From a virus (Duplodnaviria; Heunggongvirae; Uroviricota; Caudoviricetes): a stretch of DNA of 12,470 nt. Positions 2,661 to 9,338 of this stretch are shown piece after piece. The position numbers and the translations under genes were made by a program. How positions within the stretch are numbered: position 1 is the stretch's first letter; the number at the start of each line of letters is the position of its first letter. The stretch lies in the IMG/VR virus record IMGVR_UViG_2671180556_000003. The stretch is one strand, 5' to 3'. The notes beneath the pieces are model-generated. The model worked only from the letters and a program-made list of their open reading frames with translations, did not search any database and was not told the origin of the DNA.

Positions 2661-3476
2661 TCAATGAACGGTATCGAGCAGCTTTAACAGCTCAGGGAAT
2701 CGGGATTCGAAGAAATGCGGCTGCGTCTCGCGCGGATTTGCGGGACTGGTGATGTTCTTGCCGAACATGCAACCTTTCGCTGTCAGCGACCAGAATTTTT
2801 TGATGTTGTTAATCGCGGTACGGCTGTATCGTTCGCGTTGTTCAACGATCCCCAGCTTCGCCATCTGGTGATATGCCTGATTAGCCGTCAGGCGGATACC
2901 ATACTGCTTCAGCAGTGCACTCAGCGACAGCGTAGGGCGGCTTGAACCATCTGGCGCATCAGCAGGTGCATCAATGGCATAGATCGGCATAAGTTCAGGA
3001 AGACCAGCTACCTTTGATAATTTCTGGTATGCACCAAGTTTCGAGGAGTTTGACAGATTTAGAGTCTTTGCTGCTGATTCAAGCAGAATGACCCCGGATT
3101 TAATTTTGTCGGATGTGGTTTCTTCTGGTGATGAATTATGAAGCGCATCAAAAGTACGTATCACTTTTAAGCTGAATGCCGGGCTGATCCACATTGCATA
3201 TGCATAGACCAGCTCTTTACAGACATACGTCCCACCATTGCGCCCCTGAATGGTGATGACAGGAATACTACGGGAATCTCCCGTAGTTTCTTCTTCCAAT
3301 AATTCCACAAGAGCCTTCGTTTCAGGACGACGCATAAACTCGTGAACTTCCAGCGAACGGGAGGAGCGATTCTCACCAGCGGCAAGAAGAGCAGCTTTCT
3401 GAAGGTCGTTAAGACAGTAGTTAGATTCGAAGTACTGGCGCACAGAAACGCCATCAATTACAAGCAACTGATTCAT
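2661..3476 (-). CDS. KilA-N domain protein with antirepressor-type C-terminal domain (Bro/Ant-like)
   Basis: ORF 2661..3488 in the track; 3488 is GTG. ATG at 3476 is preceded by GGAG at 6 nt. The motif GRNGGTYVCKELVYAYAMWISPAFSLKVIRTFDAL is a typical KilA-N core. The C-terminal region (LSALLKQYGIRLTANQAYHQMAKLGIVE...) resembles phage antirepressor C-terminal domains. Confidence 0.8.
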   Translation of the reverse strand: MNQLLVIDGVSVRQYFESNYCLNDLQKAALLAAGENRSSRSLEVHEFMRRPETKALVELLEEETTGDSRSIPVITIQGRNGGTYVCKELVYAYAMWISPAFSLKVIRTFDALHNSSPEETTSDKIKSGVILLESAAKTLNLSNSSKLGAYQKLSKVAGLPELMPIYAIDAPADAPDGSSRPTLSLSALLKQYGIRLTANQAYHQMAKLGIVEQRERYSRTAINNIKKFWSLTAKGCMFGKNITSPANPRETQPHFFESRFPELLKLLDTVH

Positions 3477-3573
3477 TGGTTTCTCCACAAATTTTTATCC
3501 ACGAGCGGGACTGCACTCCCTTTTCGTTGATGCAGGATGAACTTACTGCGATTTTTAATAGTTATCAAGGATA

Positions 3574-3638: not shown

Positions 3639-4034
3639 TTACCGAGTTGCTAATTTGCAACTCGCTTTTTCGTACTTACTGATAGTGATCTCGACCTTCC
3701 CCTCCGGGATAACCGGTCCCCACTCCACCAGCATTCTTTTCACCTGTCTGTCGTCTTCCCACACACCCGCGTGGGTCAGGGCGTCAAACAGCGCCTTGTT
3801 ATAGTTGTCCAGATCGCGGATCCGGTTATCCGGAGGAAACAACACGATCTCCACTGAAGCAGGTGCCGACGTTGGTTTCGGCAGACGACGTAACTGCTCA
3901 ACTATTGCTGCACACGCCGCGCTCTGGAATTTTCGCCCCGCCGCGCTTATCAGGCTCTTACCAGCAAACGCCCCTTTGTTGGGGTGTCGCCAGTACGTGT
4001 TCACGCTGGGCGGAAAAGGCAGTATTAGCTTCAT
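3639..4034 (-). CDS. rusA: Holliday junction resolvase RusA
   Basis: 131 aa. ILPFPPSVNTYWRH and IRDLDNYNKALFDALTHAGVWEDDRQV match the RusA family (E. coli RusA: LPWPPSNNRYYRH...RRDLDNLQKAAFDALTKAG). ATG at 4034 overlaps the upstream stop (ATGA). Confidence 0.85.
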   Translation of the reverse strand: MKLILPFPPSVNTYWRHPNKGAFAGKSLISAAGRKFQSAACAAIVEQLRRLPKPTSAPASVEIVLFPPDNRIRDLDNYNKALFDALTHAGVWEDDRQVKRMLVEWGPVIPEGKVEITISKYEKASCKLATR

Positions 4035-4357
4035 ACTTTCAGGCCCCTCTCATGTAACCAGTGGGCTGCACGCAGCCTGGCGTTTGCCTCACCGGCAAGC
4101 AGGGCGCGGATAATCCCGACCGCCTCGCTGTCGTCGTCCTTCACCGCGGTATGAAGAGTGATACCCCGGGCCACGCCACGCTTTATCGTGATGACACCTT
4201 TTTTCTCCAGTGCGCGAAGATGCTCCACCGCTGCATTCACCGAACGGTATCCCAGCATGGTTGCCACCTCCTGATTGGTTGGCGGGAAGCCACGTTCTTT
4301 CTGATAAGAAATCAGCATATCCAGCACCTGCTGCTGGCATTGAGTTAATGTCGTCAT
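4031..4357 (-). CDS. LexA N-terminal DNA-binding-domain homolog lacking the S24 peptidase domain
   Basis: 108 aa. MTTLTQCQQQVLDMLISYQKERGFPPTNQEVATMLGYRSVNAAVEHLRALEKKGVITIKRGVARGITL aligns residue-for-residue with E. coli LexA 1-70 ([68 protein letters not shown]). The protein ends about 40 aa later with no Ser/Lys peptidase domain. GGAG SD at 8 nt; ATGA overlap with the Dam stop. Confidence 0.8.
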   Translation of the reverse strand: MTTLTQCQQQVLDMLISYQKERGFPPTNQEVATMLGYRSVNAAVEHLRALEKKGVITIKRGVARGITLHTAVKDDDSEAVGIIRALLAGEANARLRAAHWLHERGLKV

Positions 4358-5101: not shown

Positions 5102-6109
5102 TCACCCCCTGAATCCTTCCGGGATCTGGCTGTAGTCCACGTTGTCGTAACTGGCTTTGAAGTACGGGTCCTCGCGTCTGGCTGCAGATACCGCAGGAAC
5201 TTCCCAGGATTCTTCGAAATGACGATCCGGACCAAAGAACGTCGACGCCTGCTTCACGAACTGGGTACCGGTATTTCCAGAGACACGCACCCAGGCGGCA
5301 TAGCGTTTCACACCGTCGAGCATGGTTTCGGGTGTCACACCTTCCCTGATTCGGGCTTTCCAGGCTTTAAAAGCGGCGGATTTTGAATTACCACCAGCAC
5401 GTTTGGGATATTCCTGCCAGGCCTGTTCAAATTCCGGTGAATATTCCTGTCTGGCAGAACGCGCTGGTGCAGACGCGTCAGCGGATGCGCCAATAGTGTT
5501 TTTAGTCTCCGTTGTAATCTCTGTAGTAATCTCTGTAGTAATCTCTGTAGTAATCTCTGTATTTGTATCAACATTCGGCGTATCCCCTGTTCCGTTATGA
5601 CGTCGGGGGGTGTTCCGTTTTAACGTAATAGCTGTATCGCTGATTGCATTATTGCTGTTACTTTCTGGCGAAACAGAAGAAGGTGTGGTGATGGCCGCAA
5701 TTGCCTGTGGGTTGATCCCGACAAACAAAATATTGCTGCATTTCACCCCATCGAGCATTTCCACCGTGCGTAAATCCAGAGTAATAAACCCTGCATCGCG
5801 CAGACGCTTCAGCGCATCTGCGGTTTCCCTTTTCCCGAAACCAAACTGCTCAGCAAACGCCTGGTAGCTTCTTTGCAGTTTGTCGCCCTGAAAACGCTTG
5901 CGATATCCCAGCAACGCTCCGGTGTGCTCATCCCTGACCTCTGTCGGGCGGTACCAGTAAACGATCTCTGAAAGCAGAGCGATAGCCGTCGCATCCGGAC
6001 GCCCACTGGGTAGTCGAATATATTTCCACCAGGTCGCAGGTGTAACATTGCCGGAAATATTAATTTGACCAATAGCCATAACTTCCGGTGTGGGGGCGTA
6101 ACGGCTCAT
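5102..6109 (-). CDS. Replication initiation protein (O-like replisome organiser) with internal tandem repeats
   Basis: 335 aa. ATG at 6109 with GGAGG at 4 nt. It has a two-domain layout: an N-terminal winged-helix-like domain and a C-terminal domain containing EFEQAWQEYPKRAGGNSKSAAFKAWKARI, which I recall as typical of phage replication initiators. The two are joined by a low-complexity linker encoding (TEIT)x4. Position after the cro/cII-like/Rha genes fits an O-type gene. Confidence 0.65.
   Translation of the reverse strand: MSRYAPTPEVMAIGQINISGNVTPATWWKYIRLPSGRPDATAIALLSEIVYWYRPTEVRDEHTGALLGYRKRFQGDKLQRSYQAFAEQFGFGKRETADALKRLRDAGFITLDLRTVEMLDGVKCSNILFVGINPQAIAAITTPSSVSPESNSNNAISDTAITLKRNTPRRHNGTGDTPNVDTNTEITTEITTEITTEITTETKNTIGASADASAPARSARQEYSPEFEQAWQEYPKRAGGNSKSAAFKAWKARIREGVTPETMLDGVKRYAAWVRVSGNTGTQFVKQASTFFGPDRHFEESWEVPAVSAARREDPYFKASYDNVDYSQIPEGFRG
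5515..5562. repeat. Four perfect tandem copies of a 12-bp unit (GTAATCTCTGTA) inside the replication gene; iteron-like
   Basis: Seen in sequence: units at 5515-5526, 5527-5538, 5539-5550 and 5551-5562 are identical, with degenerate partial copies on both flanks. On the minus strand they encode TEITTEITTEITTEIT in the linker of the 5102..6109 protein. Confidence 0.9.
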
Positions 6110-6405: not shown

Positions 6406-6626
6406 GCCACACCTCCCAGACGCTTAAACATTTTTCCGGAGCAAAAGGCTATAAGCGGCATACTGACGCGGTAATTACGGCCCAGCGGTTCACAAACCAC
6501 CTTCTGACATTCACGGTCAACCAGGCTAACACGTAGAACATGCCCAGCAGGCGTGGTGTACCACTGACCCGGACGAGGACAACGGAAAGTATGATTGGTA
6601 AACCGTTTGAAAATATTCCGGATCAT
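6402..6626 (-). CDS. Hypothetical small protein
   Basis: 74 aa. ATG at 6626 overlaps the Rha ORF stop (ATGA). AAGGGGG SD at about 5 nt. Contains paired Cys residues (RCPRPG...RECQKVVCEP), a possible zinc ribbon. Function unknown. Confidence 0.55.
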   Translation of the reverse strand: MIRNIFKRFTNHTFRCPRPGQWYTTPAGHVLRVSLVDRECQKVVCEPLGRNYRVSMPLIAFCSGKMFKRLGGVA

Positions 6627-7783
6627 TTGCGCCCCCTTACCTCTGAAGGGTTCAGCGACAAATTTATGAGACTGGCCAGCGCCGAAGCATCATTAATATA
6701 GTCATATAAGCTAACAGCCAGCGGAGATTCGGCTTTTGCCAACATAGGATAAAGCTGCTGCAGCCAGACCTGATGAATTGATGAAATGTAGGAACAGAGA
6801 ACGCTGGCGTTATGTGCAACGTCGCTCGGTACAGCGGGCTTTGAAAGCTGTTTCTCCATCTGGTTAAAGGCATTTATGTATGCCTCTTTGAACCGGGCAG
6901 CACGTTTACCCGTGAAACCCATAGCAAGAAACGCAAAACCGTCTCGTGTGATTTGATAGCAAGGGAGCTTGCGTGTACCACCGTTCGGTTGATTTACCGA
7001 AATCGATGTCTCCGCAAAATTGCGGGCACAAAACTCTGGGGAACAATCCAGAGTGCGGATCTTTTTCAGCACATCGTCGTGACGCTTGGAGAAGAAGTTG
7101 GCAACAGCCAAAGAAGTGGTAACGGCCTGGCCGTTGTCAATGGTGATTTCAGGTTGAGTGAGGGCTGGGATCGTAGCCATGATGGCAGCCTCCGTTGACA
7201 GTGAAAAACTTCCACCACCGGAAACGCCAATTTCACTGGTGGTGAACTGGACGGGGTTGGCGTAACCGGCGTCAACGGAGACCGGCGCACCTTTCGGTGC
7301 CCCCGCCCAGCCCACCATAATCTGGATGTGAGCAAATGCGGACGATAAAAAAGACGCTGGCGCGTCATACATCGCCGTTGACAATTTCAGGACGCCAATC
7401 CCGGCACCCGCTTTATAAGGTGCCTGAGCAGTGTAACGTCCCGGAATTGCAGAATCAATATGCTGGTGGTCCTTCACACTCAACAAAATCACGCCTGAAT
7501 TTCCACAAAGGACTAAAGCACTCATGCGGGTAGTCTTTGCGAAGATAGATAACGCGCTGTGTTTCTGGCTCCCAACGAATAACATGGACATAAAGCCCTC
7601 TTCCGTCACGAAACCAGCGGTTAAGTTCCTGCACAACTCGCCCCCCACAGTCAGGTAAAGTTCTCTGTGGTTACTTACAGCCAGGTGATTTGGTAATCTG
7701 CATTCATGCCGTAACAACAGGTGTTCAGCGACGCTGACCACCAGCTGTTGCGACAAACGGTTATTTGCCGTTAAACTATTCAT
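6623..7783 (-). CDS. Rha-family phage regulatory protein (Rha domain in the C-terminal half; alternative internal start at 7180)
   Basis: 386-aa ORF. Residues about 218-300 (TTSLAVANFFSKRHDDVLKKIRTL...KLPCYQITRDGFAFLAMGFTGKRAARFKEAYINAFNQMEKQL) match the Rha domain. ATG at 7783 overlaps the upstream stop (ATGA). An internal ATG at 7180 (MATIPALTQ...) has a GGAGG SD and would give a canonical 185-aa Rha protein. Both other minus frames across 7181-7780 are full of stops, so the extension is either coding in this frame or non-coding. Confidence 0.6.
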   Translation of the reverse strand: MNSLTANNRLSQQLVVSVAEHLLLRHECRLPNHLAVSNHRELYLTVGGELCRNLTAGFVTEEGFMSMLFVGSQKHSALSIFAKTTRMSALVLCGNSGVILLSVKDHQHIDSAIPGRYTAQAPYKAGAGIGVLKLSTAMYDAPASFLSSAFAHIQIMVGWAGAPKGAPVSVDAGYANPVQFTTSEIGVSGGGSFSLSTEAAIMATIPALTQPEITIDNGQAVTTSLAVANFFSKRHDDVLKKIRTLDCSPEFCARNFAETSISVNQPNGGTRKLPCYQITRDGFAFLAMGFTGKRAARFKEAYINAFNQMEKQLSKPAVPSDVAHNASVLCSYISSIHQVWLQQLYPMLAKAESPLAVSLYDYINDASALASLINLSLNPSEVRGRK

Positions 7784-8364
7784 GCGTTAGTTTCTCCACA
7801 ACCAGAAGCAATCGACGCCACGACGCCCGGAGCTGCACACTCGCGGGCGTTACTCTTTTCCGGCGCACAAAAAACACGAAATAACAGTGTTAAATGCTCC
7901 TGCCACTTCGCCATTACTTGGTAGCTGTTCTCTTCGATTTGCTCACGCTCAGCCTGGTCAATAACTCCATCAGCAGTTGCCTTGCGTAAGTACTGGGAAT
8001 GCTTGCCAATCCATTCTATTGACTCCATCAGCCGCTGATTAATGTCACCATTGTCAATGTCATCAATGACCACCAGCGGCACAAACACCCCATTACTACG
8101 ACGGGCTATTGCATCTGTTACATGCCTGGTACCACTGGCATCCTGTAAAACCATGGCCCACTCAAGTGGAAAAATTTGATCCCCACCGCTACGCAGTCTG
8201 TTATGCAATTGATCTTTTGCTGGGGTGATATCATCAGATTTATACAAACCAAGAATTTCTGCTGCTTCCTCATAGCCATGAGGTAAATCAGCAATCGTTC
8301 TTCGTATTGCTGCCACCAGCCATGCTGGTTGTTTATCAACTTTCCATTCAGGTTCTTTACCCAC
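7780..8364 (-). CDS. Putative early regulatory protein in the cII position (possibly YdaT-like)
   Basis: 194 aa. GTG start at 8364 with GAGGA SD at 7 nt, located 27 nt after the cro-like stop. Position immediately downstream of cro is where cII or YdaT-type regulators sit. The family call is tentative and from memory. Confidence 0.55.
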   Translation of the reverse strand: MGKEPEWKVDKQPAWLVAAIRRTIADLPHGYEEAAEILGLYKSDDITPAKDQLHNRLRSGGDQIFPLEWAMVLQDASGTRHVTDAIARRSNGVFVPLVVIDDIDNGDINQRLMESIEWIGKHSQYLRKATADGVIDQAEREQIEENSYQVMAKWQEHLTLLFRVFCAPEKSNARECAAPGVVASIASGCGETNA

Positions 8365-8391: not shown

Positions 8392-8589
8392 TTATGCCGC
8401 AGCACTGTTAGTCTTTTGATATAAAGACACGTCAACTTTCAGTTTCCCGTTAGTAATTTTTTCTAACTGGTACGCTCGGCCTTCAGGAATAATCTCAGGC
8501 CACTCTGAAACAGACGGATGCTTAATACCTAGGGCTTCGGCGATTTTACAAACTCCGCCGAAATAATTAATCACGTCGGATTTCCGCAT
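8392..8589 (-). CDS. cro: Cro-like repressor (Cro/CI-type HTH)
   Basis: 65 aa, divergent from cI across the operator region. YFGGVCKIAEALGIKHPSVSEW is a typical Cro/YdaS-type HTH. GGGAGA SD at about 5 nt. Confidence 0.8.
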   Translation of the reverse strand: MRKSDVINYFGGVCKIAEALGIKHPSVSEWPEIIPEGRAYQLEKITNGKLKVDVSLYQKTNSAAA

Positions 8590-8620: not shown

Positions 8621-8686
8621 AATGTAGGATATCCAACATGCCAATGTCAAGAATCCTACATGGGCATGTGGTAGGATTGCCTACAT
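8621..8686. promoter_or_regulatory. Right operator region: three operator sites overlapping the PR promoter (minus strand) and the cI start
   Basis: Seen in sequence: site 1 ATGTAGGATATCCAACAT (8622-8639), site 2 ATGTCAAGAATCCTACAT (8644-8661), site 3 ATGTGGTAGGATTGCCTACAT (8666-8686). PR on the minus strand has -35 TTGACA (plus 8650..8645) and, after an 18-nt spacer, -10 TACATT (plus 8626..8621). A possible cI promoter on the plus strand is TTAAAT(8602-8607)-N17-TAGGAT(8625-8630). Confidence 0.7.
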
Positions 8687-9338
8687 GATGAACATGAGTG
8701 ATCGTATTCGCCAAAGGCGAAAAGAACTGAACCTGACACAACAAGCACTGGCTGATTTGACTGGTGTGAACCGTGTCACGGTTACTGGATGGGAAAAGGA
8801 CGACTACCAACCAAATGGAGCCAACCTTCAAGCCCTAGCCAACGCACTTAAATGCGATCCTCTGTGGCTTGTTAGCGGAAAAGGCTCGCCTGAACCAAAG
8901 ATAAATCTAAAACCTGAAATATTCGCAGTTAAAAAAGTCCCCCTAATCTCGTGGGTTCAGGCGGGTTCATGGACAATGACGGAGCCTGGTGTCAGGAAAG
9001 AAGATGCTGAAGAGTGGGTTTATACTACCGCCCTTGTATCAGAAATGGCATTTGCACTACGGGTCCGTGGTGATTCAATGACCAATCCCCTCGGCTCACC
9101 ATCGATACCAGAAGGTTCTATCGTTATCGTAGAGCCAGATATTATTGATACAGAGTGTATTAACGGAAAAATCGTTGTTGCCCATATCAATGGTGGGCAA
9201 GAAGCGACACTCAAAAAATTTGTTGAGGACTGGCCGAACAGGTATCTCGTCCCACTAAATCCTAACTATAAAACTATTGAATGCGGTGAGAACTGCAGAA
9301 TAGTTGGTCTTGTCAAACAAGTAATAATGGATTTTTGA
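8685..9338 (+). CDS. cI: CI-type prophage repressor (N-terminal XRE HTH, C-terminal S24 LexA-like autopeptidase)
   Basis: 217 aa. N-terminal HTH LTQQALADLTGVNRVTVTGWE, then a C-terminal S24 domain with the catalytic Ser in RVRGDSM and a Lys in ATLKKF. Three in-frame ATGs at 8685, 8688 and 8694 make the exact start uncertain, and the first lies inside operator site 3. Confidence 0.9.
   Translation: MMNMSDRIRQRRKELNLTQQALADLTGVNRVTVTGWEKDDYQPNGANLQALANALKCDPLWLVSGKGSPEPKINLKPEIFAVKKVPLISWVQAGSWTMTEPGVRKEDAEEWVYTTALVSEMAFALRVRGDSMTNPLGSPSIPEGSIVIVEPDIIDTECINGKIVVAHINGGQEATLKKFVEDWPNRYLVPLNPNYKTIECGENCRIVGLVKQVIMDF

Follow-up and report, generated by a model that had tools for sequence, protein, structure and literature searches.

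A probable P4/P1-type antisense-RNA control module in front of a Rha-family gene in a lambdoid prophage of Escherichia coli

The stretch of viral DNA analyzed here, called the window, comprises the 12,470 nucleotides (nt) of the Caudoviricetes record IMGVR_UViG_2671180556_000003 (IMG/VR) and carries on its minus strand an open reading frame (ORF) of 386 codons (1,161 nt; 6623-7783) that ends in a Rha-family antirepressor-type gene. Our analysis indicates that this region is probably an antisense-RNA control module of the P4/P1 type, which precedes the Rha-family gene within the early-right operon of a prophage of the SfV/ST64B/e14-like kind. The type of system is already known from P4 immunity, from immI of P1 and from isrK-anrP of Gifsy-1. 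The ORF is a composite in which a ymfM-like frame runs on into an RNA leader, read in translation by the same frame, and from there into Rha. A first-pass annotation, made from the sequence alone, had called the 386-amino-acid (aa) ORF and had proposed that its first 200 codons are a novel N-terminal domain, belong to a second in-frame isoform or are a decayed gene remnant. The ORF is indeed present, but the 201 codons upstream of Rha are a composite of three parts and no domain. Positions given below refer to the window and, unless stated otherwise, to its minus strand.

C4 and IsrK-like RNAs and their co-varying sites

A gene for a C4/CI-type antisense RNA occupies positions 7235-7322 (Rfam RF01695, 81.4 bits over the full-length model with a gathering threshold of 45), and its closing stem is followed by CC(A)CC, matching the family consensus. 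The C4 RNAs of P1 and P4 are produced by RNase P processing of a longer transcript. Upstream of C4, an IsrK-like small RNA (sRNA) was found at 7347-7423 (Rfam RF01394, 62.2 bits, gathering threshold 50), which is the counterpart of seqA of P4 and of a1/b1 of P1. Rfam lists such upstream targets as a family of their own, c4-a1b1, which gave a sub-threshold match at 7384-7436 and which overlaps isrK in other genomes. A terminator scan placed an intrinsic terminator at the end of IsrK (GACGCGCCAGCGTC followed by T6; 7366-7347). A putative IsrK promoter, read from the sequence as TTGATT-17 nt-TACACT (7430-7458), ends 6 nt before the first IsrK base; both of its hexamers are invariant in 46 relatives, and the putative -10 hexamer keeps the pattern TAnnnT in distant modules (TACACT, TATAGT, TATGAT).

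Loop a' of C4 (CTCCGTTGAC; 7280-7271) and its segment b' (ACGCCAA; 7263-7257) are complementary both to sites a1 (GTCAACGG; 7382-7375) and b1 (TTGGCGT; 7398-7392) of IsrK and to sites a2 (GTCAACGGAG; 7199-7190) and b2 (TTGGCGT; 7230-7224) of the leader that follows C4 and contains its downstream targets (7181-7234), and these segments co-vary through many alleles. Covariation was counted over an alignment of 77 unique modules. Within C4 itself, the closing stem and hairpin 1 were paired in 100% of the cells, with 13 compensatory pairs (8 of 17 in the closing stem and 5 of 5 in hairpin 1). Pairing between C4 and the leader reached 96.9% for a'/a2, where 7 of 10 pairs showed compensatory changes, and 99.8% for b'/b2 (5 of 7). 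Similarly, pairing between IsrK and C4 amounted to 96.3% for a1/a' (7 of 8 compensatory) and 98.2% for b1/b' (5 of 7). Overall, 96.7% of the cells were paired, compared to about 40% in slid controls, and the covariation score was 0.42-0.45, compared to 0.05-0.08 in the slid controls.

Among 46 unique close relatives, which hold seven alleles, the IsrK site, the loop of C4 hairpin 2 and the stretch before the Rha ATG change together. The window allele has GTCAACGG in IsrK, CCGTTGAC in the hairpin-2 loop and GTCAACGGAGG before the Rha ATG. The corresponding triplets are GTTATCGG, CCGATAAC and GTTATCGGAGG for the allele of locus L076, CACCAAAG, CTTTGGTG and CACCAAAGAGG for that of locus L068, and CAATATAG, CTATGTTG and CAACATAGAGG for that of phage ST64B, whose sb41 also contains the pair of isrK and C4. 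A second co-varying triplet consists of TTGGCGT in IsrK, ACGCCAA in C4 and TTGGCGT in the leader. When the sample was widened by an unbiased search of viral contigs for the C4 pattern and combined with the earlier loci, 93 unique modules were obtained; they carry 44 different loops, each complementary over at least 8 nt (median 11) to a stretch just 5' of the downstream start codon. The module amounts to a ready-made RNA switch with dozens of natural specificity alleles, in which co-varying triplets of sites control an antirepressor-type gene.

Some prophages contain two or three isrK-C4-gene modules in tandem, each with a different C4 allele (L120, 9649-11221; L080, 547-3046; L075; L014; L031-L035), and in these arrays each later long ORF begins with ATGA on the stop codon of the preceding gene. 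Also, in Pseudomonas entomophila WZ006 (L211, 2328-3605) C4 and an a1/b1 element are located about 200 nt from an array of 16 clustered regularly interspaced short palindromic repeats (Rfam CRISPR-DR4) on the same strand.

An internal start codon for Rha

The Rha-family gene proper encodes 185 aa (6623-7180) and is recognized by Pfam PF09669 (Phage_pRha, 97.3 bits versus a cut-off of 29.9) and by TIGR02681 (90.7 bits versus 45.95). In the long product the Phage_pRha match covers residues 222-311 (E 8e-28) and is therefore situated in the C-terminal half, as the first-pass annotation had stated. The internal in-frame ATG at 7180 to which it had pointed is present as well, behind a GGAGG Shine-Dalgarno sequence (7193-7189) and only 54 nt from the 3' end of C4. 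Relatives as distant as those in phages of Pseudomonas, Paenibacillus, Vibrio and Listeria begin to align at residues 1-16 of the 185-aa product, and this product therefore has the canonical Rha architecture that had been claimed for it. For the synonymous fractions given here and below, each allele at a variable site was counted once. In Rha the fraction was 0.54 when 0.26 was expected (P 8e-24), and the variable sites by codon position numbered 37/26/82 and 22/15/47. Because the co-varying site a2 includes the GGAG of its Shine-Dalgarno sequence, ATG 7180 can be regarded, judging from the sequences compared, as a genuine, RNA-regulated start.

The segment upstream of Rha is not a protein domain

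The unusual composition ascribed earlier to the N-terminal segment was reproduced: in residues 1-201, alanine, glycine, serine and leucine make up 43.3% and aspartate, glutamate, lysine and arginine 12.4%, compared to 34.1% and 18.4%, respectively, in the Rha part. It had also been said that the 600 bp upstream of Rha are open only in this frame. Between 7181 and 7783 the other two minus frames do contain 12 and 10 stop codons and the frame of the ORF none; however, a DUF4222 gene of 59 codons lies in frame +2 and an ORF of 100 codons (7066-7368) in the third frame. Different genes are thus found in this interval, namely DUF4222 and those of the two RNAs, the latter overlooked in the first-pass annotation.

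Profile matches speak for the view that the 386-aa product is a true multidomain protein, with an "Ash" region folding into a functional domain fused to Rha. Pfam PF10554 (Phage_ASH) matches residues 117-212 (E 3.7e-21; 76 bits versus a cut-off of 26), and phrog_821 matches over the whole length of the ORF (2.6e-180); furthermore, the ORF is conserved, its indels (insertions or deletions) are multiples of three, and database records contain products of 381-386 aa. However, the Ash match corresponds to nt 7148-7435, which is exactly the DNA that extends from the IsrK -10 box across IsrK, C4 and the leader into the beginning of Rha, and the "domain" includes an intrinsic terminator. Counted by codon position of the long ORF, variable sites were distributed 13/13/9 in IsrK, 12/13/17 in C4 and 11/14/12 in the leader. 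From IsrK to the leader, the synonymous fraction in the long-ORF frame was 0.28, identical to the 0.28 expected (P 0.44), and column identity was equal at all three codon positions in the 77 diverse modules. Since there is neither a synonymous excess nor a difference in column identity between codon positions, residues 104-201 are no protein domain under selection; RNA pairing explains the variation instead. Moreover, the same 201 residues are joined in other phages to unrelated C-terminal genes (a 77-aa gene, a 120-aa gene and a Kil-like gene), and Rha relatives elsewhere lack the extension. A multidomain protein is therefore a very unlikely explanation, and the novel N-terminal domain suggested earlier finds no support, residues 117-212 being the conceptual translation of two sRNA genes and their leader, without codon periodicity in the long-ORF frame.

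A homology search with residues 1-201 returned 1,449 matches; the 120 listed were all close relatives named "ash family protein", with no distant protein family among them. AlphaFold2, run on the single sequence, was uninformative, with a mean pLDDT (predicted local distance difference test) of 33 over the entire chain, including the known Rha domain. Within the RNA leader, a crude codon-usage score favored the frame of the ORF (0.27 per codon), but it was set aside because it was driven by the stop codons in the other frames.

A ymfM-like frame and a nested DUF4222 gene

The first part of the long ORF, codons 1 to about 103 (7475-7783), is the counterpart of ymfM in the e14 element of E. coli K-12. 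Its ATG overlaps the TGA stop codon of ymfL (7783-7780), so that the ATGA coupling noticed earlier is present. Nested in this part and extending beyond it is the DUF4222 gene (7455-7634), which starts with GTG, encodes 59 aa and matches Pfam PF13973 (9.4e-14; 51.1 bits versus a cut-off of 27) and phrog_1343 (1.9e-36). In the overlap of the two frames, which concerns residues 51-110 of the long product, protein-level selection acts on the DUF4222 frame. Variable sites were distributed 5/19/5 over the codon positions of the long ORF, whose position 2 corresponds to the third position of DUF4222. The synonymous fraction in the DUF4222 frame was 0.62, compared to 0.27 expected under neutrality (P 7e-5), whereas that in the long-ORF frame over the same stretch was 0.10, compared to 0.28 expected (P 0.99). 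The ratio of nonsynonymous to synonymous polymorphism (pN/pS) was 0.13 in the DUF4222 frame versus 1.32 in the long-ORF frame. Residues 51-103 of the long product are an off-frame reading of DUF4222. For codons 1-50, a synonymous fraction of 0.40 was obtained in the long-ORF frame, with 0.29 expected (P 0.08), and the pairwise pN/pS was 0.29, calculated from non-independent pairs.

A search for loci related to DUF4222 gave only relatives of 95-98% identity, and divergent copies were obtained through a search for the contigs that encode them. YmfM of e14 and codons 1 to about 100 of the window share 33% identity, and both begin with MNSLT on the ymfL stop. The e14 ymfM gene (112 aa; NC_000913.3, 1,203,822-1,204,180; L329, 4323-4681) encloses, in another frame, an intact DUF4222 ORF for which K-12 has no annotation and which is 69% identical to the copy in the window. 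The two loci thus have the same overlap of the ymfL stop with the next start and the same kind of MNSLT ORF reading across an out-of-frame DUF4222. In contrast to the window, e14 lacks IsrK, C4 and Rha, and its ymfM ends about 20 nt before the end of DUF4222. A ymfM-like ORF of 109-130 codons was also present in four further divergent phages (of Kosakonia, Citrobacter, Salmonella and an Enterobacteriaceae metagenome-assembled genome), again without IsrK, C4 and Rha. In all four it begins at or next to the ymfL stop and spans DUF4222, the third frame being closed; it stops about 20 nt before the DUF4222 stop in three of the phages and just after it in the Salmonella phage. In the non-overlapping ymfM part of the six sequences (window, e14 and the four phages) the indels measure 9, 18 and 21 nt. 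The ymfM frame is conserved as an open frame, and in the lineage of the window its stop codon was lost and the frame continues into the RNA module.

YmfM (SfiC) of K-12 was called a cell division inhibitor on the basis of an over-expressed cloned ORF (bioRxiv 10.1101/2020.11.19.390815). The published ymfM clone held both frames, the DUF4222 ORF being short of only its last 6 codons.

That the 600 bp upstream of Rha are a decayed remnant, fused to Rha by chance, would fit their unusual composition, their low charge and the lack of protein-level selection on codons 51-201 in this frame. However, the segment is highly conserved, occurring in 1,624 of 5,426 complete E. coli genomes and in 313 phage records, and it holds an intact DUF4222 gene under purifying selection together with two structured RNAs that have covariation support. 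The Rfam matches, the covariation and the synonymous fractions all contradict decay, and because the arrangement is conserved in hundreds of prophages this third suggestion of the first-pass annotation finds no support and is hardly tenable.

Comparison with P4, P1 and Gifsy-1

In the summary of the P4 model given in PMC10111431, CI RNA and seqA of P4 are described as lying inside eta, and transcripts from the promoter internal to eta as being terminated and processed to CI. According to the same summary, a truncated in-frame Kil is made only upon read-through, whereas full-length Eta is made only on transcripts from an upstream promoter, by coupling to the gene before it, and its translation keeps transcripts from being terminated. 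The window resembles P4 in that a C4/CI-type RNA and an upstream element of the seqA/IsrK type lie within a long ORF, in that a shorter in-frame gene is nested at the 3' end of this ORF with the antisense target at its ribosome-binding site, and in that the start codon of the long ORF lies upstream of the internal promoter, with the ORF coupled through ATGA to the gene before it. The same layout, with Rfam matches to isrK and C4 and a nested gene for 64 aa, was found in a P4-like satellite of E. coli O157:H7 (L085), where the isrK/C4 pair is inside a coding sequence annotated as a 185-aa "host cell division inhibitor Icd-like" protein. The ST64B homologue Sb41 is annotated as similar to ORF199 of P4. 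Unlike P4, where the nested gene is the small kil, the window has a 185-aa Rha; fusion to the ymfM-like ORF overlapping DUF4222 makes its long frame about 240 nt longer; and the element is part of a lambdoid early-right operon instead of a satellite. Termination differs too, being Rho-dependent in P4, whereas the window has an intrinsic terminator.

With immI of P1 and P7 (c4, icd, ant1/ant2) the window shares a C4 whose a' and b' segments have one pair of targets (a1, b1) before C4 and another (a2, b2) after it on a common transcript, the control of an antirepressor-type gene, and specificity alleles that co-vary. The P1 precedent is c4-icd-ant (PMC8198154), and unlike there, no separate icd gene fits between C4 and the regulated gene of the window, which are 54 nt apart. 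Also in contrast to the window, P1-like modules with a spacing of 56 nt and a 76-aa MANRKQ... gene have the frame of the downstream gene closed 33 nt upstream of its start. Another frame of these P1-like modules (L101, L106, L125, L150 and others) stays open over more than 300 nt, crossing C4 and continuing beyond the start of the small gene.

In Gifsy-1 of Salmonella, transcripts that read through the IsrK terminator are a translationally silent mRNA for the antirepressor AnrP, and IsrK acting in trans activates this mRNA by pairing with the orf45/STnc1160 stretch (PMC4825925). In orf45/STnc1160 the nucleotides are conserved and the peptide is variable, and the authors noted its likeness to seqA/CI of P4 (PMC4825925). 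The order of elements is alike in Gifsy-1 and the window: IsrK (with a leaky terminator in Gifsy-1), then orf45/STnc1160 or, in the window, C4, and then an antirepressor-type gene. The window has an orf45-like in-frame ATG within C4 (7318), which is invariant in the 77 modules. The two loci differ in that the frame from ATG 7318 enters Rha without a stop, whereas in Gifsy-1 the orf45 stop overlaps the anrP start (AUGA). Also, no ORF enters IsrK from upstream in Gifsy-1, where antQ is found.

Openness of the long frame and its possible translation

Of the full-length relatives with a single module among 84 fetched loci, almost all had an open frame over the 200-203 codons that precede the Rha ATG; the open stretch was shorter in tandem copies and in a few other contexts. 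The 46 relatives show four indels upstream of the Rha ATG, all of them multiples of three. In the 77 modules, IsrK and C4 of open-frame lineages are 55, 58, 82, 97 or 103 nt apart, always in phase, whereas distances of 62, 78 and 79 nt occur only in closed-frame lineages, 62 and 78 nt being out of phase and 79 nt in phase. Taken over the frame-keeping lineages, about ten indel events were counted, every one a multiple of three. Of the 59 unique modules with 54 or 57 nt between C4 and the downstream start codon, 57 keep the frame of the downstream gene open over 300 nt or more, a distance that includes both RNAs and the IsrK promoter. This holds independently of the downstream gene, which may be Rha, a 120-aa, a 77-aa or a 243-aa gene or a Kil-like gene for 62-65 aa. 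When distinct start contexts were considered, the frame extended past the internal promoter, over at least 294 nt, in 38 of 44, and ATGA coupling to an upstream ORF was found in 20 of the 44, including second and third tandem copies and the helix-turn-helix gene of P4-like satellites. These data suggest that the reading frame is maintained by selection for openness, and they make translation of the long frame plausible. Of the three earlier suggestions, the second in-frame isoform comes closest to the evidence; the start at ATG 7180 and the multiple-of-three indels agree with it, while for translation of the long frame itself we rely on inference.

By analogy with c4 of P1, CI of P4 and IsrK of Gifsy-1, the internal promoter would produce IsrK in the lysogen, most transcripts ending at its own terminator, and transcripts that read through would be processed to C4. 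Pairing of C4 with a2/b2, in cis or in trans, would then block Rha translation from ATG 7180, and free IsrK would relieve the block by competing for C4. On transcripts from the early promoter, eta/kil of P4 and the conservation of the frame point to a different course: ribosomes leaving ymfL may pass through the ATGA overlap into the long frame and, after the ymfM-like part, go on translating across IsrK and C4. Such translation could suppress both the terminator and the antisense block and lead to Rha or an N-terminally extended form of it. The 386-codon frame would accordingly be a read-through frame, selected for openness and not for its sequence. We give about an even chance to the proposal that SfV/ST64B-type prophages use such a P4-style trick, in which ribosomes arriving from ymfL in an openness-selected frame would melt the IsrK terminator and the pairing of C4 with its target, early transcripts would escape the RNA "immunity" that silences Rha in the lysogen, and an extended Rha isoform would arise as a by-product. 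A conserved open frame across the RNAs offers a testable tie of translation to antisense and terminator control outside P4.

A rival account holds that ribosomes never translate the long frame where it crosses the RNA leader, that the real genes are confined to ymfM, DUF4222, those of the two RNAs and the 185-aa Rha, and that the openness is a by-product of G+C-rich, conserved RNA sequence and of shared ancestry. RNA constraint alone does account for the sequence conservation, and the Prokaryotic Genome Annotation Pipeline (PGAP) of NCBI often calls a shorter Rha and a separate DUF4222. Also, stop codons occur in some lineages (copy 3 of L075, L077 and the L097/L108 group), and the in-frame arrangement is not enriched in C4 modules of other taxa. 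However, this account has against it that the roughly ten indels in frame-keeping lineages are without exception multiples of three, that the only out-of-phase distances (62 and 78 nt) sit in closed-frame lineages, although the closed 79 nt is in phase, that the frame reaches past the internal promoter in so many contexts, and that the 20 ATGA-coupled contexts include independently formed tandem junctions. Furthermore, translation of the equivalent P4 frame, eta, is reported to be functional (PMC10111431). We therefore consider it rather unlikely that the frame is never translated.

Several observations weigh against the control module as proposed here. The putative IsrK promoter matches the consensus at 8 of 12 positions and is below the threshold of the consensus scanner. 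Six of the 44 contexts of the enterobacterial class are closed, so that the open frame is dispensable in some lineages. In a genome-wide sample of 59 C4 cases, mostly from Pseudomonas, in which Rfam confirmed C4 at 18 of 18 loci checked, an in-frame ORF through C4 was not enriched (22 of 59 open versus 15 and 16 in the control frames), and an ORF through C4 was consequently rejected as a universal feature of C4 modules. In the case of Gifsy-1, which has been tested, the orf45 frame stops at the anrP start and there is no fusion. Finally, we infer the promoter, C4 processing and the use of 7783 or 7318 as translation starts.

Annotation of the locus in databases

A locus of E. coli strain E2 (NZ_CP104509) has the 1,161-nt ORF at 100% identity, and the ORF was matched in about 30% of the complete E. 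coli genomes mentioned above; 69 phage records match it at high identity, and matches were also found in many Shiga toxin (Stx) phages. The same DNA is annotated as a product of 386, 385 or 381 aa (strain E2, ST64B sb41 and Lys8385Vzw) or of 287 or 278 aa (phage 1720a-02 and SfV), beside which DUF4222 may or may not be called as a gene of its own. In many E. coli genomes NCBI PGAP calls DUF4222 separately and, next to it, either a shorter Rha or an "ash family protein". Records of 381-386 aa named "Rha family phage regulatory protein", records named "ash family protein" and some named "Icd-like protein" are thus largely translations of the IsrK and C4 sRNA genes, and annotation of the long products conceals the nested DUF4222 gene. 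The practical value of these results lies in mending a widespread annotation and in supplying an RNA switch whose specificity alleles form a natural series. In several GenBank records (e.g., MT225100.1, Lys8385Vzw_44; L001, 1714-2859) and among the protein clusters from the homology search, homologues of the long ORF are called "peptidase", for which the sequence gives no support.

Genomic setting

The window corresponds to the immunity and early-right region of a lambdoid E. coli prophage of the SfV/ST64B/e14-like kind. Its plus strand carries the gene for a LexA-like cI repressor (8685-9338). On the minus strand, a P22-Cro-like gene (8392-8589) is followed by ymfL (7780-8364), which codes for a CII-like regulator (NCBIfam YmfL, 8.4e-54; phrog_101, CII-like), by the 386-codon ORF, by two small ORFs and by a replication-type gene, beyond which Dam, a protein with only a LexA DNA-binding domain, RusA and KilA-N are encoded. 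An ORF of 335 aa (5102-6109), for which no match was found in Pfam or NCBIfam, contains a 12-nt unit repeated 4.7 times in tandem (5506-5561; 95% matches; read as TEITTEITTEIT...), and these repeats may be origin iterons within a replication-initiator gene. Farther downstream in the same operon, the protein with the LexA DNA-binding domain has 108 aa (4031-4357) and the KilA-N protein 275 aa (2661-3488); both are possible additional anti-repression or regulatory factors.

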